Origin: Balanoglossus misakiensis
Taxonomy: Eukaryota; Animalia; Hemichordata
Assembly: GCA_040954595.2 (NCBI GenBank)
Contig: CM082592.2
Span: 4,356,735-4,420,734, forward strand
Direction: 5' to 3'
DNA length: 64,000 bases
Shown: piece after piece, positions 3,521 to 62,112 of the stretch
How the letters are laid out: each line of letters begins with the position of its first letter
How positions within the stretch are numbered: position 1 is the stretch's first letter
Notes under the pieces: generated by a model
The model's input: the letters and a program-made list of their open reading frames with translations, nothing else
Database searches by the model: none
What the model was told of the DNA's origin: nothing
Position numbers and translations under genes: made by a program

Positions 3521-6469
3521 TGTCTGTGTGTTATATTTGTACAATGTATTGGGATATGTTTTTTTAAAACTATTTATGTGTTCATGTGCCGGTGCTCTAA
3601 GTACAAAATACATATCCTTTTCTTCAGACGAGATACATAAGTGCATATAGTGAGGGACACGTTCATGAAAACAGTTCAGATGGTGTATTGTAGACGGGAA
3701 TATACATCTGGACAATATCATTTTTTGACCCCCCCCCCCTCCGCATTCTGTTGTCTGTGCCTTTCCTACTGGGTCTATATCCCGAATCAATGTGAAACGA
3801 AGTACCCGTTTCACTTTATCAAGAGACCGTGAACCACTTGGTTTAATCCTCTGAACAAAGCCAGGAATAACAGGCCTTAATGGTGGATAGCTTACAGTCA
3901 ATAGAAGGGAAGGGGTCTTAAAAGAGGGCTATCCTCAATGCAGCTGTTTCACCCTGAACCGGGGGAGATTTTCTCAATTGTTGTACGGCTCAGCACTTTC
4001 ACTAGGCTAACTAAATATTATTCCTAGCATTGTCGTCGTCGACACAGATGCAGTACACCAATCGACAAACACAAACAACGCCCAGACACCCTTTGAATTA
4101 GAAAACTGGGCGTAAGATGACGGTCACATGACCAGGCGGTTTAAACAGGCAAACACGCGTTTCAATATAAGCTTATACATATATTTATTGCAAATACAAG
4201 TGTTATCACAAAACATATTATGAATATGTAATAAAACGTTGAAAAGGGATCATCATTAAACAGGATAAAAAGTGCAGTGGTCATCTAATCCAGGATATTC
4301 CAGCCTTTTGCTGAAATGCCGAATGGATTATTTCAAGTTCAATGACACAAAATGACACAGGTTGGCCCGAGCAAGCAAGCCCACCTCGAACGTCACATAA
4401 TCACTGAGCTTACATTGTTCTTACAACTTTTCTATCTGTCTAAAAGTTCGGTCTGCGATCAAACCAAGAAGAATACTGTACGGTTACCGTAAAACGATCA
4501 GTATTGTCGTAAAGTACGACAGGACGCGCATCCCCTCCTTTCTGACCCTGGTGTATACCACCAAGGTCGAATTAGGGCACGTCACCAAATAAGATTTTCA
4601 TAAATAAACACCGCGTCTCTAGTACATGTTACCAAGGGTTAACCCGAATATCAATATTTTACATTCTCGTCAAAGTCTTAATCAAACATACAATCGGCAT
4701 TGTAAGGCACTACTCTTTTCTGAGTCAACATACATTTACTATTATGCGTCATTTTTCCTACGCTTGACATACTCTACAAAGCAATAGACAAATTTCCGGA
4801 CATCGCGATACCCTACGAGATCTCGCGTGGCTAGGCATTTTATATGGTATGACATTCTCATGTGACGCAGTCGCAGGACAAACAGATGACCCATTGTGTT
4901 AAACGTCACTAAAACTACAATTATTGTTCAACTTTGTACCTATTCTACTTTCATACAAAGTTTGAATTCTATCACATGGCTATCAACCCGTTGCTACGGT
5001 AATTAACCAAATCTCGCGAGATCTCGTAATAAGCGGAAAATCATCTTTTGATTTTGAATTTGAGGTGCTATAGTAAGTTATGGTTTGCATTTTTTCCTTT
5101 GCATATATGATACGAGTTGGTCGGATATCTTTAACCTGGATCATACAAATCCAGTTACAATCGATACTCACAGAACCGAAGATTCTTAAAAATGCATTCC
5201 TGAAATTTGTGTTCATTACCGGAGGATTTTGTGAAATGTTCTTCTAGTTTCCAGTTACAGTTGCTACTCTGAATATTGCAAAGCAATCTGTATAACGCTG
5301 TCTGTACTAGGTCAATGTGGATAACTGATGAAAGATCTTCTTTAAATTCGAGTATCGAGCCAATATAGTTCCAAGTTCCATACGAAAACAATCACTTAGA
5401 AACTCAATATTGTCAATACTGGCGGGCTGTATCGTTCTGTTAGTGTTGTGATGTTATACAATAGATGCGACAAACATTCATATCCAAAGGAAAATAATAA
5501 AAGAACGAAGAGAAAATATAGGCAAACACAAAACTCCCAAGTTAATTGTGGAATCAATACGGAAGATTGTCAAAACAAGACGCTGATAGCAAATGACAAG
5601 TTAAGTGTGATACTAAGGGTATATGTAACAGCAAAAAAAATCAGGCGAAAATGATCTTTTGACTGGGTTTTTTGTAAATTAGACCTTAAACGACTCTTGG
5701 GTCGACAATGCACAATGTATATAGTTGCATTCCCAAACATATCATACATTTAAAAATATGTAGACTATAAGATTTGTGAACTAAATATTAAATCACATGA
5801 AAAAAGCTGATCTGAAACGGGCTATCATGCAACCTTAAATATTGTGGATGAAATAAACGTTTGTAATTGAAATTGTCATTCTCGCTTTGTTATACATGTA
5901 ATTTCCTTACTTAGAATAATCGTTGGACTAGATTTGACGTCTCATTAACTAGTTGTTTGCGCAGGCGCAGAACCGTCGACGGATGCCCTTGACCGCGGCC
6001 TTGACTACTAGAATGCATTTGAATTTTCTCTGAACAGCCTTCACTCCTTAAAATACTGAGAATTATTTGAATTTGTTGGAGGGATATAGTAACCCCTTAC
6101 TTGAGTTTTCTTCAAAACGAGACAATACTGTAGATGGTACTTACAAAACAAAATAGTGTGATTTTAAAAACAAACAAACAAACAAACAAACAAACAAATC
6201 AATGAAAGTTAAACGTAGTATCAGAGGCGTTTTTGTAAAATCATCTGTGACATACAACATTTAGTAACAGCCATCGAAAAAATTGAGAAATGTCAAAAAA
6301 TATACATACAATTAACTCAATGTGTAAAAATAAATCTTGCTATGTCAAGTGAAGCATCGAGTTAAAGTGATGATGATTCAAGTAAAGGTAAACAGATTTG
6401 TCGAAGATGTGTCAAAGTTCCAGTACATGTACTCCCTGCCAGGTTTGTAGCTACAGTAGACGAAGTCGT

Positions 6470-32633: not shown

Positions 32634-35600
32634 GCAAGTAAGCAATCAAGCAAGCAAGCAATCAAGCAAGTGATCGATCAATGATCGCCCAATCAATCAA
32701 TGTTTGATTGACTGGTTGCATGGTTGGTTGATTGTTAAGTTGGTTGGTTGAGTGAGCGTGATTAAACGGGACCAACGGGCCAGTTTTAGTGTGTAGTCAG
32801 TATTAATCGGTTCCACACGCATCAGTATAGCATATACCTACCTCGCGGAGTTATGTGGTCAAAGGCGTACGGACGGGATCTCTCGATAATCTCGAACAGA
32901 ATGATAGCAAAGCTATAGATGTCCCCCTTCTGAGTTCCGTACACGGGCGGGAAGTTCATGCGAAGAAGTTCAGGCGCAGTCCAAAGCTTGCCTATGATAA
33001 AAGAGGGTAAGAGATAATATGTTTAGGCTGATACTGAAATAGTGAAACTTGTGAGGGAATCAACATTAGCCTATCGAGTACGGAATACCATAGTTTCTGG
33101 GAAAATACATGTAATACTCGTCTGAGAGCCTGGGCAGAATTAACAGGTGGCTGGTGCGATGATGACAAACCATAAACAATGTGTTCTGTACTGTTTCCAT
33201 TCCTTTCATGGTGTTTTAGACCCTTCATGGGTGCACCTTTAAATTTTCAAAAATACCTTACCCAAATAAAGTTCATGTTCATCGGCATTAACGTTTCTGG
33301 CTTGACCCTGCATAAAGCTCTGGAGACCGTAGTCGGTGATTTTCACCACCCATCGGCTGTCAATCAGGCAGTTGGATGATTTCAGGGTGCCGTGAGACCC
33401 GTTTCCGTGTTTGCTCTTGTGCAAGTACTCCAGTCCCTATGGAGGCATTGACAGAAGATTGTGAAATTGCTGTCAGAGCCGTTACAGACGTTATATGCTG
33501 AATGGCATCATACTAGTATTTGCAGTTTTGCTGAATGCACAGATTGTATCGTCGCTAGACATTTTCGTATTTTCAGACAAAGGTCAACAATGCCTGAAAG
33601 CATCGACAATTAAACGCCCACGATTACCTAATGCGCATGTGCGTAATTTCGTGTGTACAAACATTACGTCCAATCCAAATGTTCTGCAAATTTTGCGTTC
33701 GACGCATGCAAATAGTGGACTGCCTTCGCTTCCTTTCATATTTCATGCGTACCATATAAGTAGCCTCTTGTTTTATCCCTGACCCAATTTTCTTTCTTTT
33801 CCCGATCTGCCTTATAGCAATGACTGTATACATTTTTTTGTTACCAGAGTCTCTGGTTTGGCACATGCGCATGAGACGATCGTCGGCCTTTAAACTTATT
33901 TTTGTCACCTTTATTATATCAGCGAAGAAAGAAACTTTGAAGGCACGGTCGAGTTTGATGTCGTCATTCTCCAACACATCCTGTTGAGGAGACAGAAAAG
34001 GCGTCAACATTGGAGTACTTTCCACATATTGTCAACAGTAACACTGCATTTGGCAAACATATTCGAAGGAAAATAATTCTAAGGAGTGAAAGGGCAAGAA
34101 ACGTCAGCGACAGCGGGTCATGTGATGATACCAATTCAGTTTCATTTTCTTCAAAGGTTGGTTCAACCTCTGACCTTGCCTGTGGCAAGGTTCACGTTGG
34201 GAATCATGGCCCATAAATATACATGCAATTTAAACGAAATTCTCGCTAACTTAAAATAGCTTTTATACATGATTGGAGGGGTCAAATCACATAATAATAT
34301 CAACACATTGGTATTTGCTCTGTCACAAAATTCCAGTTATGCAGTATGATCAACATCAATTTAACTTATGAACGACGACCATCTTGAAATTTTGTCGACT
34401 GCTTGAGAATTTTCTCACTCACCTAGGTAGTAAAAAAACTACTTAATTCAGTGATGGTATATGAAAATATGGGTCGGGGATATTCAATCATTGTCTATAG
34501 CTAGCAAAGTATAATGCGCCTCGAAATTTAATGCTTTTTTATTCAAAAGCACGTCACAAGGTTTTAGTACAAGGTAAGAAATAAGATTTTTTTTATCTTA
34601 CAGACGTCTCGAGGCGCATGGTACCTTGTCGAAATTTACATATAGTACCTGTAGACTTCCTTTGTGGCAATATTGCCAGACCAGGCAGAGATCGGGATAT
34701 ATAACACAAGCCCCGAAAAATATATTCAGGTTTTCGTGATTGAGTTGACGTATCTAAAGTAGAAATGTAATACACACATTTGCACACAACAGACCAGTTT
34801 CACGACCCTTGCGTGACCTATTTCAAGACGGTGTTTTTGGTGGTATGTGGCGACCGAAGTTCAATTTGTTTGTTGCGACAAACGTCAACATTCCCTGAAG
34901 ATGAGATAGAGTGGAGGGGGGTTCAATTAAAGGGAAGGGGTCGTCGCGCCGCGTGGGTGTCCCTCTTGTTGAGAATATGTCCTCCCATACCAGCACAAAC
35001 CCCACTACAGTCGCCACGACCTACTAGGATCTGCAGTTGCTGTCATGCCCAGTCTACGCTACGGTTGGCTGCTTCGTTCATTCTAAGAATTATCTTATTT
35101 GAGGGATTTGTGGATGAATTGTAATGTTTATAAACAAACAAACGCGGCGTGACGACCCCTTCACTTTAAGTGCAAGTGCAAGGTCGTCGAAGAGGTTTCA
35201 AAGAACTTTGAACTGGTGGATTCATACCAGCAAAAACAACTGCATGGTTGTAAGGTCACGTAGAGTCCATGAAAATGGCGGAGAACAAACAAACTACCTG
35301 TAGGCTCCCTCTGGCACAGTATTGCCACACTATGAAGATGCAACCGGGATCCACGCATGCGCCGACGAAATTGTTCAGGTTCTCATGATTTAACGTTCGT
35401 ATCTGGACGAGAAAAATCGCGAATTACAATGGTTGTACCATGACACAGGGCAATACGATTGAGCTTGCACAGTCCGCCATCTTCTTGTCACTCATGTGCA
35501 CTGCAGCGATTAGTTGTGTACAATTTGAGAGTTGTCAATGTTATCATAAATTAATGCATGCATTCGACACGCGAAATGTGATTTTTACCCCCCCCCCCCA

Positions 35601-47454: not shown

Positions 47455-50400
47455 TTATGCAAATTTATGCAAAGTCGACGCGGTAGACGGCTCATCAGCT
47501 GTCCCCTCCTTGTAACCGTCACCGACATCGCTGTTGTCGACGCTATTTTCCCTGTGGGACAGAAATCCGAAAAAGAGAGTGGTTTTCATATTTGCATGCA
47601 ACTTGGTGGTTGACATGTCTGTGTATCGCGACGAGGCAGAGTGCGGATGGTCTGCTGATGACACGCAAATGCATTGTGATGTTTTTGAATGCATTGTGAT
47701 TTTTTTTCAGGCACAGCAGTCGATGTCGAGCTAGCGGAAGAGAAAGACCGCAACTTGAAACATCTACTTACTGCCCACCACCGCCTTCCGCAGCGAAGTC
47801 ACCGCCGATATTCGGCCCCCTTTTGAACTCACTACAAGGAAGAAAGAACAGGAGAAAGTTAAAAGGGACCAAATCGGGGGACCACTTGCACTTGAAATAC
47901 AGGTGAGATATAGGTGTACCATTCAACGGCCATTGTGTCAGCCGTTGAAGGCAACAATATAAACTGTCCTTACTTGGATATCTTCGGAAGTGGCTTTTTG
48001 AATCCATCCTTTCCATGTAGAAAATAAGTTGCTACCATGCCCTTTCCCTGAAAAATACAGATGAAAATGATTAGAGGGAAAGTCATTTTACATATAGCAT
48101 TGTCATTTGAATCGCCGTATTCAAATTAGCTCATTACTATGCAGAAATGTATCAGTGACTATGGACGTCCATTTCCAGGACGTAGATTTAGACAAAATAG
48201 ATTCAAAGATCCTTCAGATAGGATCTTAAAGTCAAAGTCAAAAGTCACAGGAGAGAGCTGAAATCCCACCTTCACATCGATATCACCACGAGGCATCATG
48301 TGGTAACCGGCATTGCTGTCACAAAGAGCTGTGTACGACTGTTTGCTGATATGAATATGGCACGCTTCAAACCAAAGAAAGGTATAATTATTGGGGAGTT
48401 ATAATTAATTAAATAATTACTTATTTATTTATTAATTACCTGCGTATTATTTATTTATTCATTCATCCAATTATATATTTCTTAAGTTGTCTGTTTGTTT
48501 GTCTATTGGTTTGTCTGTCTGTCTGCTTATTATTCATCTATTGATTGATTGATTAATATATTTGTTTGTTTGTTTTCTCGTTTATTTATTTATTTTATTT
48601 ATTTATTTATTTATTTATTTACCCTTGCCAGTGGATTCCATTCGGGACGCAATATTGACGGTGTCTCCAAACAAGCAATAGCGAGGCATGACCAGCCCGA
48701 CCACGCCGGCCACAACAGGTCCCGTATGTACGCCAATGCGCAGCTGCAGTTTCTGTTTGGGTCGGTGACGTATCTTGAACTTAGTGACGGAGCTGAGCAA
48801 GTCCAGTGCGCAGTCGGCGATCTCTGTCACGTGGCGATGTCCGTTGCGGTGAGGCAGCCCGGACACTATCATATAGGCGTCACTGATCGTCTCGACCTTT
48901 GAAGGAAAAAAGAATTGGAGAGAGACTTGGTGTTGAAAGTTACGAACAATACATCACTGACGTTAAGTAAAACCTCTTGAAATTGACAATTGTAGAAGTG
49001 GGTTTTCTGGCAATGAGTGACCAATTCCGCACGTTTGTACTGAGCGTATATCCTTTTAGGATGTATGTTCAGTAAAATTGAAAGAATTGTCATTTCTTTT
49101 AATTGAAAGAAATTACCTTGTAGATATCATAGTTGGAAATGATGTCATCAAAGCAGCGATATAAGTCATTCAGAAAATCTACAATCTGCAAAACGAAAAC
49201 AAATCGAAATGATAATTATAAAGAATATAAACTGTGTGGAGCTTTAATTTTAATTATACAGTCCTATACCTGGAACTATGCTCGAGTGTCGAGATATTGG
49301 AACGGTGTGAACTTTCTGAGGTGAGACATGTTCGCGACGGATTCAGAACACTGTGTTTGCGATTGTCATCTTGCATTGGGGTGTGCTGTGTGCACATGAA
49401 CACTGTGAGGCGCGAATCATTCTACTCCTATTACCTGGAATGGCGTACTCTCTGACGACAATGTCGAAAACCCGACAATGTCCGAGAAGTAGATGGTCGC
49501 GTTGTCGAAGTTTTCGGGGTCCACCTTTTGGTTCATCTTCAGCTGTTCTGCAACCGTCCTAATAAAGACACACAGATGTATCTAGATGCGATTATTTTTT
49601 CACCACTACAAAGGCACATAGGCGAGTCGCCACAAATACACAACCCATCGCGCTTCAAATAATTAGTATTCATCCATCTGGAAATTGTCATAGGCGTCTT
49701 TAAAAATATTTAACCCTGTCGTGAAATTGAAATGAAAAGCGAGAAAACAGCAGCGGCGGGATGCAAATATCTAGGGACATTTCAAATGTAAAATCATGTA
49801 AGTGTAAATTGAAATCTTTGTCCAACCGCGCATCAAATGCATGCTAGCTCTTTGTCAACAAAGCTGTACACTTCCTTATCAGTTTCCCTTACGATGGCAG
49901 CATCCTGTACAACAGACGATCAGTCTTCCGTTTTTCCTCCAAGACTTGCTCAGTTCTTTCTTCAACTATCTCCTCCAAACTGGTGGAATATTTCTCCATC
50001 ATGGTCAAAATATTATCCACGATGTTAATTCTGTGGGTTAAAGGCACACTATCACCGCCAGTTTACATATCCCAATAGAATTGCTTAGGGCGTGTCAGTA
50101 ATCCTCGTGGATGGTACACTTTCTTTCACGTGGCCACCCAAGCGAAAAACTGTGATTGGATGGGTTTCTAGAGCACGATTCTGGCACCTACAGCATCGTG
50201 CCGTTAAATGGCTCAAGAATGGAATGGGTCTTTATCAGTAATTAAAACAACGACGAGAATATTGATGTTATAAAACAATCCTAGAAAGGCCCAAATGCAT
50301 AGAATTGTCTATAGTGTATTAAACTGAAATGGAGCTGGTCCATAATTATGCAACCCTCCTGCTGAAGTATAATACTCACTCTTTGCCGAGAATCGCCTTC

Positions 50401-52441
50401 AAGTCTGTCCGTATCTTGGTAAATGTCGGCCTGGCGTCGCTGTTCTCGCTCCAGCATCTGTACATCAGGTCGAGCACGCCGTGGTCAAAGTCGATCCCTT
50501 CCACGCCGATCTGTGACGTGGGTCGAAAAGGTGTACTCTCGCCATTTCGGATACGATTGACCACATCTGTAACAAAAAATAGAACACGCCGGGTGACCCA
50601 TCGACCGAATAGCGATAAACTTGCCATGTATTAGTCTGCTGAATGAAATATGGATACAAAAAAAAATTTAGTAATTAAAGCTCCATAGCTGTAACTTTGC
50701 GCCATGTTTTCCATATTTTGTTTGGTGTATCTACTGCGGTTTCTTGTTCAAATCCCTGAAATATGATGAAATGCCCAGGCTATATGTTGGCACTCGGAGT
50801 ACTGGGTGTATTATCATGCTGTTTGGAGTAGAACAGAACAGAACAGGACATTGCATTTGCTGCACAGAACAATAATACTGAAAATAAAGCCAAAAGTTAC
50901 ATCTAAGGTCCCTTTAAAAAGTCTGTGCACTTTCCCCTTTAAATGGCACAGTACTGGAACTAAATGATAACGTAGGGCCAGAAAGACAACATTCATCTAC
51001 AGATACAATCCTGACAGTTTCATCGGTGCTCACCTCGTGGAGTTATATTGTCGTACACGAAGGGCGGGGCTCGTTGGACAATCTCATACATGATTATAGC
51101 AAAACTGTAGACGTCGCCTTTCTGTGTGCCGCCCGGAGGAGGAAAGTTCATGCGAAGGATTTCTGGAGCTGTCCAAACCTTACCTGAAAAAAGAGAAGTG
51201 AATGTGAGAAAGAATAGCAAAGAGTGATTTCTACCGTAAGCACACACTTGCGTAAAATATAAGCAACCAGGCTTCAATTTGCCATTTCGTATTTTATACG
51301 GCTAACGCAATAAGAACTATTCTGGGGTTACAAGACACTTTATAGTGTTTGTAAAATAGATTCAATTCTGCAATGCTTCCCTTTAAATATTCTTCCTGGA
51401 TTTCACTGGGAACGGTGAGGGGTGTCTATACAGTAGACTTACACATGAACCTCTCCTGGTCGTCGATGTCACTCGAGGATTGGCCTTGCACAAAACTGGG
51501 CAATCCGTAGTCTGTCACTTTGACAATCCATCGGCTGTCCACCAGACAATTGGACGACTTCAGGCTGCCGTGGGCGCCAAAGCCGTGCCTGCTCTTATGC
51601 AAATATTCCATTCCCTGCGAAAAAGGATAAAGGGAGAGACTCAGGACCGGTACCGTTAGATGTTTGCCTATTGGAGATGCCCATGCATGTGCTAGGTAGT
51701 CCAAAATTGCACTGTTCTGTTTCTCAGTCTCCCAGCAAGAAACTAATATTTCATAGATCCTGGACTGGCAGAGGTTAATGACATCCGGGTCAAACATTCA
51801 GTTAATTTATATCATTGTCATCGCCCAAACCCCTAACCCACCGTTTTATCAAACCACTCACCCAACTTCCCTCCCTCCCCCCCCCCGGAGGCCATCTTGA
51901 AAATGTGTCGACCATATGACATTTTCACCACTCACCTAGGTAGCAAAACCATATTTAAGGTAGCGAGAATTGAGATCAGGTTTCAAGAAACTCAATAATG
52001 GAATTGCTATTGTTGAGAAGGCGATTAATTTTACCTTTACTGTATCAGTCATGAAGGATATTTTGAAAGTTGAATCTAGTTTGATATCATCATTCTGGAG
52101 GACGTCCTGTAAAAGACAATATGGGTTATATTCACAAACATTTGGACATATGAATAGCGTAAGATAAAAATAACGAACAACTCTTTCTCTGTGTAACAAC
52201 CAAACAAACAACAGACAGCAGTTTGGACATTGGGCTAGACCTAAGTGTCAATTACAGAACCGAATCATCCTACCTGTAAACTTCCTTTGGCACAATATTG
52301 CCAAGCTAAATAAATGCTGCCCGTCTCAACGCATGCACCAATGAAAGGATTCAAATTGTCGTGGCTCAACTGCCGAATCTAAAATAAATTTAGAAAGGTT
52401 GAATGTTAACTTTTAATTTTATTCATGATGGTGATGATGAC

Positions 52442-52509
<68 letters not shown>

Positions 52510-55500
52510 GACTGCACATACTCATACATACACAAACACACATACATACATACATACATACATACATACATACATACATACATACATACATACATACATA
52601 CATACATACATACATACATACATACATACATACATACATACATACATACATACATACATACATACATACATACATACATACATACATACATACATACATA
52701 CATACATACATACATACATACATACATACATACATACATACTAAAATAGATGCGTGCAGGTCACGTACACCAAGTGTTTTGCAGCGTGGGGAAATGTAAA
52801 AGAAAAAAGATAGAGGATCACACGACTGCTCTTAGGTTGTTCATCAATATGATGAGTTTACAAAGTTTCGACGTTTCACCCCATGATTAGGGCTTATTCG
52901 TGCATATTTAATTATAACTAACCTCATTAAACTCAAGCAACACGGCCCTGTTAACCTGAATGTGTTCCTTGTTGATTTTCTTCAGGGCGATAGAAACACC
53001 TCGATACGTGGCTGTTCTGGCGAAGTACTGCACAGTGCGATTGGATGGGGCTGAACTCTTGCCGTCAAAACTGCGCTGTGAGGTACTGGATGAGTGTTTA
53101 GACATGGCAGATGGCGAATGTGAACCCGAGGTACCCGGCTGTGAGAGAGAGAGAGGGGGGGAAGAGACAATGAGACAGAGATAGAGAGAGAGGGACAGGA
53201 AGAGTATTGCACAAAATATGATGTAACCTACTCCGAATGTTGACGTCACAGAGTAGACGTGACAAATAAGTCTACAGTTTCAAGCAGTCTCTATGAGGAC
53301 ATCGATGGGTGATATATATATGGCCAGAACATTCTCATTTGAGAGTACGGTTAGCGTAACAAAGAGTGGTAGAGGTATTTATTTGCAGGAAACATCCGTA
53401 ACAAGGGCGTGTATAAGAGGTGTGGTTTATCCAAATTGGTGCAAATAATATTCATGCCAATATATGATGAGACATTCAGTGTTGCACCATCAGGTATTGA
53501 CGAAAATTGATACAGATTGAAGGGATATAAAACGTGTGTAAATATTCGTTCTGTATACGTGATTTAAAGTAGATCGCAAGGCGAATGGTGTGAGGTTAGA
53601 TCAAACTGGCATTGTTATGTTTTATCGCATCAACAAAAATACTGAATGTAAATTTCACGCATGTGTCGAGGAAATTTGTCAATATCTTACATGGCTACCC
53701 TTTTCAAGAGAACCGAATTTTCCAAAACTGCCGGAACCTCCAGAGATGAACCGGACCTCTTCCATGTGCACCTTCCATCTCATGTTCAACAGCTCGCCTT
53801 CAAATTTGCTGCGCCTGAAACATAGATGTAAAAAACTAGTTAGAATATTGTCATTTTCCTTATGTTTATATATATTGTTTATCACTTAATGTTAAAGTGA
53901 ACCGACACCTTCCTTGTAGAGAGATTCTAATAAAATCTTTGTGAAAAACATGAGTGATTTGCGTCGTTTTTATTCACTTTCACTTATCGCGCAGCAGCGT
54001 AGCGTCGATCTCGATATGCAGCGTGACGTCACAAACTAGTCACCAGTAGCAGACGCCACCGTGCGCACGCTAACGTACACAGACAGTTGACATGGGTGGC
54101 TGCCTCGCAAGTGGGAGCAAAAACAGAGTTGGCAAAAACACGGCGAAAGGTTTTATAAAAGTTCCCGACCCTTCAGGGACAGTCAAAATGCAAATCGAGC
54201 TGGAAATTGGGTGTCAAACATTGGCATATTATTTCGGTGCTTATTGCTGAGACAGATGATACTTTTGCTTCGGAAATGTTCGTGTTCAACTAGGCCCTAT
54301 ATCGTGAAGCATATTGCAAAAAAAAACTACACAGCAAAAATTGTCGAAACAGCCGGGGCTCCTGATTACCTTTGATCACCATATGACGAAACCGATTTTT
54401 TGGCACTGTAAATCAAAACTCTGATCGGAAGAAAGTAGTGTGGCGGAAATAGGCCTACTAGTGAACACTGTGTTTGTCGCGTACCCAAGCTGTGAATGCA
54501 TCGCAAAACCATTTCCAAAGACAAAAACGACCACCTCTACCATCTGGAAGCACCACAGATGTACTCGAAACATGACAATCGGAGTTTCTGCCTCCCTTTG
54601 ATCAACAAAGCCGCATCTTTTCACAGCTGTTGATCAACGTAAAGGATGGTAGACACGTGTGGTAGACATTTTCGCGAGAGTGTCAATAGGTTTACTTTCT
54701 ATTCTTTTGGGAAATCACGAGGGTGCCTATTATGACATGGGTGACTAAATGTCAAAAATTATCGCATGGCTTCGTGATATGTCGTTCAAGTCTTTATCTA
54801 ACGGCCTTGTCAAGAAATCTATTTCATGGCAGCACCGGCATTCCTTGACAGTAGAAATAACTTCGCATTTACCGCAGCGCAGCTACACCATGAGCGTGAT
54901 GAAAGACGAAGCCGATCACTCTTCTCGATCGTCTTTGCTGTCTACACTTGCCTCTGTACTATTGGAATCAGTTTCACTTGAGTCGCCTACCATCTCATCG
55001 CTGCTGTATTCGGGTTCGTACAAAAATCCGACGATATCTTCGTTTGAAAACTCCATATCGCGTGGTCGTTTTTGTCTTTGGAAATGGTTTTGCGATGCAT
55101 TCACAGCTTGGGTACGCGACAAAAACAGTGTTCACAAGTAGGACTATTTCCGCCACACTACTTTCTTCCGATCAGAGTTTTGATTTACAGTGCCAAAAAT
55201 TCGGTTTCGTCATATGGTGATCAAAGGAAATCAGGAGCCCCGGCTGTTTCGACAATTTTTGCTGTGTAGTTTTTTTTTGCAATATGCTTCACGATATAGG
55301 GCCTAGTTGAACACGAACATTTCCGAAGCAAAAGTATCATCTGTCTCAGCAATAAGCACCGAAATAATATGCCAATGTTTGACACCCATTTTTCAGCTCG
55401 ATTTGCATTTTGACTGTCCACCGAAGGGTCGGGAACTTTTATAAAACCTTTCGCCGTGTTTTTGCCAACTCTGTTTTTGCTCCCACTTGCGAGGCAGCCA

Positions 55501-58500
55501 GCCATGTCAACTGTCTATGTACGTTAGCGTGCGCACGGTGGCGTCTGCTACTGGTGACTAGTTTGTGACGTCACACTGCATATCGAGATCGACGCTACGC
55601 TGCTGCGCGATAAGTGAAAGTGAATAAAAACGACGCAAATCACTCATGTTTTTCACAAAGATTTTATTAGAATCTCTCTACAAGGAAGGTGTCGGTTCAC
55701 TTTAAGGACAGCGCATAAGAGCACTTTTCTTGCGGTAAAAAGACATATCATCGATCGTGAATGTTTTACTTACCGGTATAACCAAATGCCAAGGGTTGTA
55801 ACCGCGCCGGCCACAATAAAACTGGCGGCAAAGGCAGCAACGTAGATGGATGCATCTAACAAAAATAGACGTGGCTTTAGACTGTCATTTTCTCGTACGA
55901 ATGTTTTTGCTGAAAGGCCGACAATCGTCTCATGCGTATGTGCCAGAACAGTATATACTATACTTACAGTTATTTCCTTTGCACCCCGAAAAGCCGCACA
56001 CGGGCGTGTCCGGCGGGGCGTACTGGTGCCCGACCTTGCCACCCGGCCACCGAGGTTCCCGAAGCTGGCGAAACACCTGAAACAGAACATTGAAACAGCT
56101 TTCAGTCCAGCTGCGCGCGTCCCTCCCACAGAATGGTTCGAACGCGTTGCTTCGGACTCCCGCCAAATAGGTCATCACAGAACATGCAGGAGGTCGTTGG
56201 TGACCGTCTCTAAGGGCAGTTTATTAATTCAATAGTCAGTGTGTCGACCTCATTTCTATAGACTGCAGTCTATAGAAAGTTGTTCAAACTAATAGCTCGG
56301 TGATTGGAAAGTATCCGCGACCATGGACAAGTCAAATGTATGCGTGCTGTACTGTTAATGGACCAGTGAGTCAACACCTTATGTATATACACGTGTCATT
56401 CTTTCAGCATCGAACAAGATGCGGCCAGTGAAGATATTATAAATCTGATTGTTATCCCCAAATAACGCCTGTTGTACCCCAATAATGCCTCATCTTACCC
56501 TTGTACCATTATCCAAGTTCACAACTTCAGAAATCTTCACAAAGACGCCGTTCGGTTGCAGATCTGTGATCCAGTAATCCGGCTCCCGGTCGCCGAATTC
56601 GTCAATCAGGACATTTCCGGTCATCCCTGCAATAAGTTTTGACAAATTTAGTGAGATAATGTTTGCAGAAACGCTGTGTTCATAACTAATATAATGGTAA
56701 CATTTAGCATAGCAGAACTATAATGTGTTAATCAAGAACAATATTATCGCCTATACTATTAGTTCAATGTAATGCACTTTAGCACATCAATGTTGTGTAA
56801 TCTATATAAATCAATTTGATTATCTGAAAACTAATGTTTGTTGATTTTTGCAGTTTCCAGTATGTTTCACACCATGGCCAATGGTTTTCGTGTAATTAGC
56901 AAGAAAGATTACACAACTTGCGATTTTTAAGAGAAGCATAGTGGTAAAGGATTGTACCAGCTCTGAAGCTCACTATTATATACCTCAAATTTTAGACATC
57001 TTGCCAATCACAAATTTTTACCCTAGGCCAGGCAAATTAAAAAGACACGTCTTTTTATGCACTGTATATGGCCAAATGATAATTAGTGGTTACCATTTAC
57101 CATGGAAACCTTCAAATGCCGTAGTTATGGTTACCAAGTGATCTGCAGCGGGCCTCCCTGTGGTGTATCAAATCAAAACCGCACTATCGATCGTTGGAGC
57201 AGATTAATGTACAATTCTTTAAAAAACCCAAATGTCAACTGAGAGACACTTTGCTACCTTTGAAGAATAAACCGGAGAGAGCGTTTGCGATAATCGTGCC
57301 ATCTCTGTAGTCGAGACCCTGTGACACTGTCTGATTTAGAGCAAGCACGTAAAGAATGATGGCGTCGTACAGGAAGGGGGCGAACTTATTGCCCTGGAAG
57401 AGAGAGAAAGGCATAACGAGCTCGTCTTAGAAAACGGTGAAGAGTATATACGACAAGTCGGTGTCCAATCCTGTCAGAGACCCTCATTTTGCGTGATAAC
57501 TGGAGCCCATCAAAACTCAATCTGGTTAAAATCAGGTGTAGGGTACGCCGACGTCTTTTACTTACACGGTACGGTATTCTTAACGGTCGAATGTATGGTA
57601 TGATATTATACCGACGAAAACTACCAAGATGGGACGCAGGCATAGTGATCGTAAAGGGGTTCGCATAGTGAATGTCGCAAGACAGACGGCTTTACCCAGC
57701 TCGGTTGCCCCATTTTGATGACTTCAATGATAACGGGCTAGAGTAACGATATAATGAGGGTCTCAGACAGAACTAAGCGTTTTCACAGAGGAGCCACTGC
57801 CAACCACAATTGAAGGTAATTCTCGCTCACCAGTCAATGGGTACTAACATCGCCTCTTGCGTCACAAAAAGACAATTATCTGACAACATTTCACATTGCA
57901 ACCTTTAAATGCCGGTGACAGTGGCTCTTCTGGGACTGCCACATGCGTGTATAGTACCTTTGAAGAATTTATTTCGCATAGCGTCGAGCATAACCTCGCC
58001 ATTTCTATAATTTTTCTGAGCAGCGACAGTTTCGTTGAGGGCGAGGATGTATAGTATCATAGCATCATAGAGGAACGCAGAATACTTGTTGCCCTATCAA
58101 AAGATAAAGGGTCGTCAAATTCACATTGTAGAAAAAAAATACATGTATTATGTATATATTTCCGATTCTCACATTCGCTTTATATATTACCTCCCAGAAG
58201 AAAGCCCAGTATAACGTTTCCCAGGTATAATCTTTGATAATAAGTACCTGACTGTATTCCTGTCATTTAATTTCCTTGAAGTAAAAGAACATGGAACTTA
58301 TGCAGTTGTTATTAATTGTGAATTTAATTAAAGTCACCAAAATATATGTATGTATTCCAAAATTGAAATTCGGTGAGCGAATATAAGTTCGCGACGTACC
58401 CCCTCCCCTCCATAAGTTTATGGACTTCGCATTTTGAACTTCAGCAACAATCTTGGACAGTCCCGAAGTTGTCGGCGATAGGCCAAGTTTGGCCAATCTC

Positions 58501-61500
58501 TTTGCCATGGATGAAAGAACAGAAGACGCGTAGCGAGCGAATCTTTAAAGGGACATTAGCTGTAACTTTTGGCATTATATTCAGTATTTTTGTTCTGTGA
58601 AAATGCAATGTCTTGTTCTACTCCAAACAGCGTGCTTAGATACCCGCAGTACTCCGCTTGTCAACATAGCCTGTGTGTGTATAAACCCCACTGTTATTGT
58701 TGACAAATGAACTCTAGTCCGGGCTTGAATTCAAATTTTGCACAATAACACCGCTGACTATATACATAAAGGTTATGTTAATAAATTGAATACTAGGCAT
58801 TCTAACATGCTTCAGGGATTTGAACAAGAAACCGCAGTAGATACACAAAAGTAAAATTACTGAAAAAATAGCGAACGGTTACAGCTATGGGGCTTTAAAT
58901 TGGTCTCACCTGTGAAAATGCTGAGAAGGTTGCCTTAAATATGAAGGATATATGGTTGTTGATAAACAAGATAATTGTTCCAAAGAAGCTGCTAATCGAC
59001 ACTTTATCATCGTGAATTTTTACGAATAATCGCCAAAATCTGTGACGCCATAAACCCGTTCCGTCCATCGGGGAGAACGGTATCTTTTGGGAACGTTTTA
59101 AATATAAAGGAATTTAAATTGCAATGGGTTTCAATTCTATATAGGGCGTATGTATTTTATTGTACACAGGCTGTCAGCATATATATGGCCCGGTTTCAAT
59201 CTAAATTGAAAATCAACATCATTTGGCTTTGTTTCATTACACATTATACACATAAGGAGTATGTGGAGTTTGTCGGCAAAAAATACAGCAAATAAAGTAA
59301 ATAAGAAAAGATGGACTTTGGTGCAGGGCTTACCTTGGATCCCGGTGGAAGGGTCATGCTCCACGGGGGTTCCTCCAACCTCCGAACAACTTCGATCGTG
59401 AAGTCGTCGATTTCTGTGGCTGTTAGCGCCGCCAGTGACATCTATCGGTGCAACAATGAAAGAAGAAATGACCATGATAAAAAGTGTTTCTATGGTGCAC
59501 GTATCCTTGCCGTAACCTATGGAGGTCCATCGTACAATATACGAATCCCATAACCATGCAAATAAGCACACGTATAGTCCAATAACAATTCAAATAAGCA
59601 CGTGGAGTCCAATAATATCACTGTTGAAACTTACGGACAGAACCAAAATATGTGTCGTTAGGTGCGCTAAAATGTGCCGTAGAACCGTGTGTGTGTGTGT
59701 GTGTTGGGGAGGGAATAGGGAAATGGTACTTACAATATATAGGGGTAATTTGACAATTCGAATGCCTAAGAGTAACATACGGGGTTTCACTTGTAGAACC
59801 TACATGGAAAACAGCCTCAAAGGCCTTCCTTGCGTCCTCGTTTCTACCGTCGTCTCCCAGATACGTCTCCGCTGCCGTGATGACGTCTTCATCCGGCAGC
59901 ATCTCCACGGTGTAGAACACGTATTCGCCGTTGGTCATGCCCCTGTCGTGCGCCTCCAGGATCATCTTGCGTCGGTCCATTTTAGGGGCACAAATTACTA
60001 CGACTGCGAAAAAAAACATCGTTTTTGTTGAAGTGTGGTAGACAGTAAGATTAAACAGTAAACATCATGATGTTATAGGGTTCACGTATCAAAACGTTTT
60101 CGCGTGAATAGAATTTCGCGTATTACTGACAATTACTAGTAACTCCGTTATTGTTTGTCCATTTACACGCGTACGCTCTTTCTATATTCACAATGCAATT
60201 ATGCTCCAAGCTTATATAAACATAGGTTAATAATTTCATTCCTTCCTTCCTTCCTTCCTTCACTCACTCACTCACTCACTCACTCACTCACTCACTCACT
60301 CACTCACTCACTCACTCACTCGCTCACTCGCTCACTCACTCATTCTTTATGCGTTTTGTACTCGTTTTAGAAAGTTTACACTCGTTTACTCACTTCTCCC
60401 TTCTCTGCTAGTTTTTTTCAAAATATTTTGGACTTGTCTGTCGGTTGGATTATTGTTGTATGCCACTTCGTATCCGATAGTAACATTTCTTTCCTTGAAA
60501 GTCTGTATACAGGTTTCAACAAATGTGAAATATATAGTTGAGTTACGTAAACATCAAGGTATTCTGTTTGTTATGAAATTGCATCCGGTTGCGACCGGTT
60601 GTTTTATTGAAATTCTTATCCTTGGGTGTTTGGGTGCCGGTACATGTACTGGGGTCGGGAAAGGGATCTCCCAAAATACTTCACAAGCAAACATTTAGAA
60701 AACATGCAGCTTTGAAGTACACACACGAAAGCACGAAAACATTATTTTTGCTCGAGGTACCAGAGTGCCGGTCACGTGACACGCACCTTAACGATAGCCC
60801 TGCCGGCATCGCCGTACATCAGATAAGTCGAATAGATGACAACGGCCCTACTCCAACCGTAACTGTCCATGATCTCCAACAGGAACACACCAAGTTTGCT
60901 GAAGGGTCCCAGGGATCGTCCGAGGGTGGAGTACACCCTTTTGTCGTTGAACTCCGGCGACGTCGCCACCCACGATATGATTGGAATGTTCCAGAACGAC
61001 GCCAGCTGTCCAGCGATGAGACAGGCTGGGGAAAAACCGTGTTTTGTCCGTAAAAATGGACTAAATTTGACTTAAAGGTGGGAGGATGGGTTACATAAAA
61101 TGTTGTGTTTTTTTTTAAATTGCCTTGACGATCAATCACCATAGACTACTGTTCAACACTCCTGAATGTTTCTCCATTGAACATACATGTATAACAAACA
61201 AACAAAAAAACAAACAAACAAACAAAACGAAACGAAACAAAATAAAATATAACCACTCACACACAGCCTGAATTGTCAAAGAAAAGAAAGTCGACCAAGA
61301 AACATGTTTATCGAGTCACATCTTCTGCCCCCGACGTATAATTGATCAAGTACCTACCATCTGAACACGGCGGGCCAATCAGTACATCGACACGTTCTTC
61401 GATGTAAAGATCGACGGCGTAGCCGCCAGCTTGTCTGCTGTTACACTCCGAGTCACGCGTCACGATTCTGTGAAAAATGAACCAAGTATTAAAGTTAATC

Positions 61501-62112
61501 ACATTATCTGGGTCTCATGGTGCATGTATAATGTCAAGGATATCTACAGTTGTATTTTAGGGACTTTTCCCCAGGTGATTTTTTATTATAAATTGTTATG
61601 AATTGCTATTCTATCACTATCTTAGAATTCTGCGTAAAGTATGGCAAACAACATCTCCATAGTGAAAGAAAAATAACACAGAGAGGTGGGTTGATAGGTT
61701 AAAAATTATCAAGACAGGGATATGTAATAATAATGATTCTTTGTTTTAAATAGTAAAGAATATATTGTACACACGATTGCGTCAGTGAAGCTGTAAATTT
61801 TATCTCAGATGCTAAATCGCATTAAGTCTCAGTAGAAGATAGTTTAATATAGTATTAGATAAACTTTGTGGGTTATAAAGTCATCGAACACGACCTGACT
61901 TACTCAAACTCCACTTCTTCGACGAGGTCCAGTTCCTTGATTTTATCGATTGCAATACTAATTGCACCGGCACTCGTCGCTCCGCCGAAATCGTTCAAGA
62001 CTTCGAAGTTGGTCCACGGCACCAAGAAGCCTAACTTGACGTTGATGACGGCCGAGGTGGGTTGGCTGCAAGCAAACGCCAACAGGAGCGCGTTGAAGAC
62101 GCGTACAGACAT
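47455..62112 (-). CDS. Receptor guanylyl cyclase paralog 3 (NPR/GC-A-like), spliced, with a duplicated extracellular-domain exon
   Basis: Exons (minus): 61904-62112, 61358-61467, 60787-61025, 60394-60502, 59804-60003, 59334-59441, [57958-58093 or 57258-57393], 56499-56626, 55968-56076, 55774-55855 (TM), 53691-53814, 52923-53138, 52274-52378, 52035-52106, 51443-51614 (HGSLKSSNC), 51034-51183, 50380-50566, 49893-50030, 49435-49558, 49117-49185, 48623-48896, 48270-48364, 47974-48047, 47772-47831, 47455-47551. Confidence 0.93.
50675..50917. mobile_element. TTAA-flanked MITE (Kolobok-like), family C copy 1
   Basis: TTAAAGCTCCATAGCTGTAAC...GTTACATCTAAGGTCCCTTTAA; homologous in reverse orientation to 58545-58898. 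Confidence 0.75.
52425..52740. repeat. (GAT)n and (ATAC)n microsatellites
   Basis: Read directly; source of the poly-D/M/H/I and YIHT ORFs. Confidence 0.98.
53892..55705. mobile_element. Kolobok-like non-autonomous foldback DNA transposon with ~640 bp inverted arms
   Basis: TTAA at 53892-53895 and 55702-55705; termini AGTGAACC...GGTTCACT; arms 53896-54534 and 55062-55701 are near-identical reverse complements; decayed THAP-like and Cys-rich coding remnants inside. Confidence 0.85.
57258..57393 (-). CDS. rGC-3 alternative exon 7b (tandem duplicate of 7a)
   Basis: 136 nt, phase 0-1; [45 protein letters not shown](G); acceptor TTTCTCTCTCTTCCAG, donor GTAGCA. Confidence 0.9.
57471..57932 (-). 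other. Two predicted intronic RNA stem-loops between rGC-3 exons 7a and 7b
   Basis: 57471-57488 pairs with 57753-57770 (17/18); inner 57541-57557 pairs with 57679-57697 (bulged); second hairpin 57786-57819 pairs with 57901-57932 (core 15/17). Confidence 0.75.
57958..58093 (-). CDS. rGC-3 alternative exon 7a (extracellular domain)
   Basis: 136 nt, phase 0-1; [45 protein letters not shown](G); acceptor CTTTATCTTTTGATAG, donor GTACTA. Confidence 0.9.
58545..58898. mobile_element. TTAA-flanked MITE (Kolobok-like), family C copy 2
   Basis: TTAAAGGGACATTAGCTGTAAC...GTTACAGCTATGGGGCTTTAA; shares TTGAACAAGAAACCGCAGTAGATACAC with copy 1 (reverse strand). Confidence 0.75.
60239..60342. repeat. (TTCC)n-(CACT)n microsatellite
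   Basis: Read directly. Confidence 0.95.

Follow-up and report, generated by a model that had tools for sequence, protein, structure and literature searches.

A folding intron between tandem exons 7a and 7b of a Balanoglossus misakiensis receptor guanylyl cyclase gene and its predicted role in mutually exclusive splicing

Results

Tandem copies of exon 7 in a receptor guanylyl cyclase gene

We examined a window of 64,000 nucleotides of Balanoglossus misakiensis DNA (contig CM082592.2), in which three tandem paralogs with matching exon layouts occupy the minus strand (window 9200-62100). The last of the three, a receptor guanylyl cyclase gene with the Pfam domains ANF_receptor and Guanylate_cyc, contains exons 7a and 7b, and its open frame comes to 1020 aa over exons 1-21, whether 7a or 7b is chosen (Table 1). 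Its closest named relatives are ANP-receptor-like proteins of the acorn worms Saccoglossus and Glandiceps (72-78% identity over exon 3). P0006, for which human NPR1 is the nearest solved structure, had its best score with the 7a/7b gene, and P0008 had its best score with paralog 2.

Exons 7a and 7b have the anatomy of mutually exclusive tandem exons: they are adjacent homologues of equal length and phase (80/136 nt identical), both carry AG and GT ends, and the frame is open with each. Their pS is saturated (0.75) with a pN of 0.31, so both copies have been maintained as coding sequence. Joining 7a to 7b places a stop at base 6 of 7b, 128 nt ahead of the next junction and thus within the rule for nonsense-mediated decay (a stop >50 nt before a later junction), which bears out the frameshift and decay backup proposed in a first-pass annotation of the locus; skipping both exons leads to a stop in exon 8. 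From this anatomy we infer that 7a and 7b are used in a mutually exclusive manner, a choice that exchanges 21/45 residues of the receptor's extracellular domain.

The exon of the acorn-worm ortholog shares 29/45 aa with 7a versus 22/45 with 7b, and the exon of every named relative is farther from 7b than from 7a (22-29 vs 26-35 of 45 aa). Exon 7 occurs as a single copy in each of the two other paralogs and in 10/10 related proteins. A tree of 11 exon peptides (0/8 inner branches starred) gives no age for the duplication, and exon 7b used alone as a query found 0/13 candidates. A 24-nt AG..GT bracket at 58910-58933 was rejected as an additional exon, being unneeded: related proteins run directly from exon 6 to exon 7. 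Elsewhere in the gene, an inverted-repeat element of ~356 nt with many contig copies lies in the intron upstream of 7a (58544-58899) and has a second copy in intron 16-17 (50675-50918), and a long inverted duplication with mirrored frames and sequence, likely a fold-back element, spans ~53900-55720 in intron 10-11.

Table 1. Features of the 7a/7b gene and of the exon 13 pair of paralog 2, in window coordinates.
Feature	Position	Strand	Remarks
Receptor guanylyl cyclase gene	48623..62112	-	coding exons 1-21 as modelled; further exons to ~47460
Exon 6	59334..59441	-	ends in phase 0; from splice sites and frame
Exon 7a	57958..58093	-	136 nt, phase 0 to 1
Intron 7a-7b	57394..57957	-	564 nt, GT-AG
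Hairpin I 5' arm (element A)	57901..57932	-	second copy: one change, G-U to A-U
Repeated 48-nt stretch	57867..57914	-	distal half of arm A and loop
Hairpin I 3' arm (hub H)	57786..57817	-	second copy: three changes, 0 on Watson-Crick pairs
Linker, closing helix 5' arm	57778..57784	-	7/7 pairs; second copy identical
Hairpin II 5' arm	57753..57775	-	core 57753-57770, identical in second copy
Inner stem 5' arm	57679..57697	-	not conserved
Many-copy repeat fragment	57518..57582	.	within hairpin II loop; contains inner stem 3' arm
Hairpin II 3' arm	57466..57488	-	core 57471-57488; second copy: four T shortened to three, stem retained
7b branch zone (element B)	57420..57436	-	predicted branch A 57427; pairs with 57778-57794
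Exon 7b	57258..57393	-	136 nt, phase 0 to 1
Element D	57074..57182	-	lies past 7b; divergent repeat of arm A that also partners hub H
Exon 8	56499..56626	-	starts in phase 1; from splice sites and frame
Paralog 2 exon 13a	35298..35402	-	105 nt, open
Paralog 2 intron 13a-13b	34754..35297	-	544 nt, three nested helices
13a-13b intron helices	35142-35172/34924-34954; 35223-35238/34832-34847; 35253-35278/34794-34819	-
Paralog 2 exon 13b	34649..34753	-	105 nt, open

Stems of the intron between 7a and 7b

The first-pass annotation had described four stems in the intron between 7a and 7b, and all four were located at the described places on the minus (transcript) strand. Hairpin I starts 25 nt past the 7a donor, as claimed, but its 3' arm is two bases shorter than had been given; over 32 positions it has 25 Watson-Crick pairs, 2 G-U pairs and 5 mismatches. 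The 18-bp core of hairpin II has the one mismatch reported (17/18 Watson-Crick), with G-U pairs that extend the stem to 57775/57466, and every position of the short closing stem pairs. Recomputed unpaired lengths agreed with the earlier values of 117 nt with the strong stems and 62 nt with the closing stem, and the CTAAG motif is found at 57430-57426.

Folding of the whole intron gave z = -2.51 against shuffled controls (2/100 shuffles as good), and the two main helices scored 18 and 17.5, values that 0/1000 dinucleotide shuffles reached (best shuffle 15.5). Among same-size tiles of the window, 12/91 hold one equally good helix, so the existence of the stems alone is weak proof in this genome; two equally good helices occur in 3/91 tiles, all three nested in one element. 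The 5' arm of hairpin II had a pair probability of 0.94-0.99 across six folds of both copies, and the probability of hairpin I as a whole ranged between 0.09 and 0.81, depending on which stretch and which copy were folded. During computed transcription hairpin I is the first to form, and it holds in 6/7 folded prefixes. The closing helix has an energy of -5.6 kcal/mol, and the lowest-energy fold pairs over the 7a donor, dependent on the stretch folded.

No Rfam covariance model (miRNA, snoRNA or other family) matched the stretch 56600-59400 at E up to 1, and relics of the hairpin arms were absent from the paralog introns. For the repeat fragment in the hairpin II loop, 80 and 74 contigs carry one variant at 57548, and its ends at 57518 and 57582 are loose. 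A GCAUG at 57942-57946, 12-16 nt past the 7a donor and identical in the second copy described below, is a candidate Rbfox-like motif.

A second sequenced copy of the intron

In the DNA contigs from two runs of one sample the intron exists in two versions, assembled as contig pairs with comparable depth; the versions are most likely alleles and possibly a recent duplicate. In the 417 fully listed nt the versions differ by 34 substitutions and 5 indels; 57502-57582 was omitted from the variant test because repeat contigs mask differences there, and 57440 lies outside the tested stretch. The stems had been named from sequence before these variants were known. Hairpin I, the closing helix and the core of hairpin II together have 91 Watson-Crick positions, which carry 0/34 substitutions, with 7.4 expected (hypergeometric P 0.00016; 0/416 circular shifts), and the sparing held against a base-matched null for broken pairs (P 0.001) and with clusters as units (P 0.006); taken singly, each stem is weak in this strictest, cluster-based test (P 0.07 and 0.19). 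Loop positions changed at 10/83 and 15/183.

Changes in the arms of hairpin I comprise two conversions of G-U to A-U and, both on mismatches, one substitution and one deletion. A third G-U/A-U swap lies in the extension of hairpin II; a deletion scored on hairpin II turns four T into three and leaves the stem intact. All three pair-type swaps (3/3) give G-U on the transcript strand and not A-C, an outcome expected 1 in 8 by chance. The swaps are one-sided, with no double-sided compensatory change between the two copies, and the conservation test consists of this one second copy from one sample. The two main hairpin stems are real and under constraint.

The inner stem is present in the window copy, as first annotated, but is lost from the second copy, where four substitutions, two of them on G-C pairs, weaken the duplex from -19.5 to -12.8 kcal/mol; it was rejected, with the qualification that three changes in 57502-57544 are hidden, so that compensation remains conceivable. 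Over the branch zone and most of element D the contigs are collapsed or give no cover (none is listed for X2 at 57144-57185), so that the conservation of these two elements is only partly tested. Exons 7a and 7b have no difference listed in the two contig sets, in which collapsed contigs may mask single changes; a rough depth estimate permits about one hidden change in 198 nt around 7a. The copies diverge by ~8% in 57394-57957, more than in the intron contigs on either side, where 16 differences fall in one stretch of 576 nt and 13 in another of 248 nt.

Rival partners of one hairpin arm

Hairpin I's 3' arm, here called hub H, has two rival partners that the earlier account missed, the 7b branch zone and element D. 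The branch zone forms 14/17 pairs with its partner (1/1000 shuffles, in a window picked after seeing the helix), a helix that is the closing helix extended into the base of the 3' arm of hairpin I; the second-copy deletion at 57790 also falls on a mismatch of this longer helix. In element D, 57074-57121 repeats 57867-57914 at 35/48 positions (0/300 shuffles, 0/97 real tiles), and the loop part of this repeat is not conserved in the second copy, where 34 nt show 3 substitutions and a deletion of 4 nt. The duplex of hub H with 57095-57185 reaches -41.9 kcal/mol versus -42.0 for hairpin I (A:H), a value matched in 1/300 shuffles and 0/98 real tiles (next at -40.7). In context the D:H state is 4.5 kcal/mol less favourable, with forced ensembles within 0.5 in another calculation, and its probability was ~0.2 in 3/4 folds and ~0 in the fourth.

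By computation, then, hub H is an element of the intervening intron with exclusive partners of similar energy, as in ATE1-type systems, and the balance of its pairing states varies with the stretch folded. ATE1-type partners each cover one 3' splice site; those of hub H cover the 7b branch zone only, the 7a acceptor zone being absent from its best partners. Docking-site/selector systems have a docking site in a flanking intron, and here the two copies of the 48-nt repeat share no best partner in any flanking intron. Two candidate pairings were rejected: 57773-57793/58905-58925 as an upstream docking site, in which the second copy breaks three Watson-Crick pairs, and 57868-57914 with 58890-58937, which falls on bases differing in the second copy. 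A G-rich stretch at 58379-58422 is predicted to be able to pair across the branch and acceptor zone of 7a (-27 kcal/mol, 1/100 shuffles) and could serve as a cover of the 7a acceptor.

Donor-to-branch distance in the folded intron

Motif prediction gives the A at 57427 (-34) as the best branch candidate, within the motif pointed to earlier, with further candidates at -45, which carries the second-copy difference at 57440, and -20; other introns of the gene have CTRA motifs at -22 to -26. The AG-free zone is only 27 nt, so there is no distant-branch layout. Along the sequence, 530 nt separate the 7a donor from the predicted branch A, more than the classical limit for steric exclusion, which the parts of PMC7969005 and PMC5740500 available to us place at ~50 nt from donor to branch. 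Folding shortens the path to 73-83 nt if only the strong stems are counted, which begin 25 nt past the donor and end 38-43 nt short of the predicted branch A, and to 28 nt if the closing helix is added. In a yeast study, stems with a 42-85 nt linker are modelled as compatible with A complex/spliceosome (PMC12350175, in the portion available). Since 73-83 nt exceeds ~50 nt and lies within 42-85 nt, the two strong stems alone make no steric block by these rules. The closing helix pairs bases 3-9 upstream of the predicted branch A and covers bases that U2 must read, so that it would be as much a mask as a spacer. The steric exclusion first proposed is partly supported, by its constrained stems and by a like design in the neighbouring paralog described below, but not in the strong-stem path, which is longer than the threshold; the 28 nt would depend on the closing helix.

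A second exon pair in paralog 2 and copies in other animals

The same fold-shortened design was found next door, between the in-frame exons 13a and 13b of paralog 2, which belong to the kinase-homology domain (23/35 aa identical; pS 0.87, pN 0.25). Double inclusion of 13a and 13b stays in frame, so decay cannot police this pair. The outermost of its intron's helices begins 18 nt past the donor and ends 40 nt ahead of the acceptor, and folding gave z = -4.70 (for a stretch one base off). Within this intron 34830-34854 could pair with 35223-35238 or, via a 15-nt direct repeat, with 34979-35003, again a hub pattern.

We compared 48 of the 63 introns of the three paralogs (250-900 nt; ends in paralogs 1 and 2 approximate). 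The shortest strong-helix paths were those of 13a-13b (~35 nt) and 7a-7b (81 nt), the rest being >=155 nt. This measure was devised after a whole-ensemble path measure failed to discriminate (inter-copy introns at ranks 10 and 4 of 48, not singled out), and it was hence checked in 21 scoring settings: the two inter-copy introns rank 1 and 2 in 10/21 and both stand in the top 7 in 21/21. By excess folding energy they rank 5 and 8 of 45, 7a-7b being 8.

Among 69 metagenome loci, 11 had more than one hit cluster, of which 9 are one exon in two pieces and 2 are tandem copies. The two-piece matches to the exon 7 equivalent (L038, L053, L061-L066, L068) suggest an extra intron in those animals. In another animal the exon 7 equivalent is present as three copies of 154 nt each (L024:1673-3514); 64 nt separate the first copy from the second, with CTGAA at +31, as in a classical linear layout. 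The second L024 intron (1316 nt) has helices at 2536-2556/2647-2667 and 2931-2951/3205-3225, and 2650-2674 alternatively pairs with 3773-3797, past the third copy. L018 holds an intact copy and, upstream of it at 1350-1784, a decayed copy without frame start and donor, which two 24-nt helices directly precede, and at the protein level P0013 reads as two exon copies with a short spacer. The L024, P0013 and L018 copies are an analogy and not evidence on the 7a/7b locus.

Discussion

A proposed folded lock between 7a and 7b and its alternatives

We lean towards an account in which the folded intron acts as a lock, by crowding and by masking of the branch site, with rival pairings setting the choice and decay as a backup; its role in splicing is a prediction. 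The exons are intact tandem copies, likely used singly, and the folded intron would hold the 7a donor against the 7b branch site and pair over that site, so that 7a is not joined to 7b. Hairpins I and II would shorten the 530 nt from donor to branch point by ~450 nt, and hairpin II would set the linker beside the branch zone, which would enable the closing helix (path 28 nt, U2-binding bases covered). Hub H would have three near-equal partners: pairing with arm A would leave 7b weakly masked, and pairing with the branch zone or element D would mask 7b or loop it out, so that 7a is favoured. Messages in which 7a and 7b are joined through leakage would be cleared by nonsense-mediated decay. The lock would account for the non-joining of 7a and 7b; repression of 7a upon choice of 7b falls outside the proposal. 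In its favour are the spared Watson-Crick positions of the second copy, the short strong-helix paths of both inter-copy introns, the branch-masking helix and the repeat shared by arm A and element D. Against it, once U2 opens the closing helix (-5.6 kcal/mol), the path that holds would be 73-83 nt; the variable probability of hairpin I, the weak result for each stem singly and the ranks in the whole-ensemble measure count against it as well.

In an appreciable, if rather unlikely, alternative the stems give a splice-friendly distance or set the 7a:7b ratio, and decay of 7a-7b messages is the main enforcer, possibly as a way of turning the gene down. The strong-stem path and the placing of the stems near donor and branch A fit the yeast rule as far as it is given in the accessible text of PMC12350175, the early stop in 7b supplies the enforcer, and some intron structures of ATE1 and SCN9A set the ratio with exclusion unaffected, according to the parts seen of PMC7797038 and 10.1101/2025.08.16.670673. 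Such an account meets difficulty next door, where the in-frame pair folds to ~35 nt, under the range of the yeast stems and with no decay backup, and it leaves the closing and masking helix unexplained.

We consider it improbable that the stems are inert relics of old fold-back insertions, their low arm variation being due to chance or to DNA-level homogenisation of inverted repeats. Strong hairpins are indeed common here (the 12/91 tiles), the upstream intron carries the 356-nt inverted-repeat element, and a repeat fragment sits in the hairpin II loop; yet the arms occur at two-copy depth only (depth being a rough guide), no target-site duplication is seen by eye, the variant pattern has P 0.0002-0.006, none of the three pair-type swaps yields A-C in place of G-U in the transcript (a chance of 1 in 8), and both inter-copy introns are the most fold-shortened. 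Least probable by our estimate is that 7b is a dying copy kept silent by structure, with 7a alone in use, as its greater distance from all named relatives' exons (22-29 vs 26-35 of 45 aa), the two of three folding states that mask or loop it out and the one copy in each of 10 related proteins might suggest, for 7b is free of stops and indels, keeps its splice sites intact, has pS 0.75 vs pN 0.31 and shows no listed difference in the two contig sets, whereas the decayed copy of L018 has lost its frame start and donor.

It is possible, though we would sooner doubt it, that steric exclusion is built here by folding, two independent duplications having each gained a ~550-nt intron that folds to the size of the tiny introns serving this end in other animals, and that the 7a/7b lock doubles as a three-way hub switch. 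In that case exclusion would be predictable from the folded and not the linear donor-to-branch distance, and linear surveys would miss the class. The available part of a human survey (PMC5740500) assigns no mechanism to most mutually exclusive clusters and counts steric cases by linear distance in introns <500 nt; were folding able to make a steric limit, part of the unexplained clusters would be testable through a simple computation and through minigenes with compensatory changes. Two such cases lie side by side at this locus, 7a/7b with a decay backup and 13a/13b without one.

Comparison with known systems

Exons 2 and 3 of alpha-tropomyosin are mutually exclusive through steric interference. 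Vertebrate OGDH 4a/4b belong to the same class (PMC7969005, seen in part), which makes up 9% of human mutually exclusive clusters in the portion of PMC5740500 at hand. Like these exons, 7a and 7b are tandem copies whose joining would be blocked by a branch point too close to the upstream donor; steric-interference systems, however, are close in linear terms (<~50 nt), often with a distant branch point, and the 7a/7b intron has 530 nt and a normally placed candidate that comes near only when folded. Human ATE1 7a/7b, as far as PMC7797038 could be consulted, likewise has, in the intron that separates the two exons, an element for which partners compete, among them one over the acceptor region of the downstream exon. 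Unlike in ATE1, the hub's rival partner directly follows the 7a donor, a third partner is situated beyond 7b, and no pairing of the hub with the acceptor of 7a was seen among its best partners.

A duplicated arm after each exon copy, with both arms complementing one site, is shared with docking-site and bidirectional systems (Dscam, 14-3-3zeta, Mhc, MRP1, srp), and such a repeated arm is a prediction of the duplication model in the part of PMC6071210 available. The 7a/7b locus differs from docking-site/selector systems in that the shared site lies between the two exons, with no conserved flanking docking site found. The SCN-alpha elements lie downstream of the second exon (10.1101/2025.08.16.670673, available in part). 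Yeast zipper stems, in the accessible portion of PMC12350175, also draw donor and branch point together, and the 73-83 nt path fits their 42-85 nt rule; they promote constitutive introns, whereas the 7a/7b intron has side-by-side stems and a branch-site helix between alternative copies.

A related combination is Dscam exon 17, for which Yue et al. in 2013 reportedly described a linear steric limit with RNA structures that tune the choice. That two-exon cluster unites steric hindrance and RNA structure as 7a/7b would, with the difference that its limit is linear and that of 7a/7b would be created by folding. No description of fold-made steric exclusion, or of this gene's exon pair, was found in the literature searched, which left most subscription journals outside, and the Yue paper of 2013 or a 2018 WIREs review may already contain a fold-made case. 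The 7a/7b arrangement would work like steric exclusion and like ATE1, yet it departs from the first in linear distance and from the second in the pairing of the hub with the upstream acceptor. We place it as a variant of RNA-structure-controlled mutually exclusive splicing, new in its folded form.
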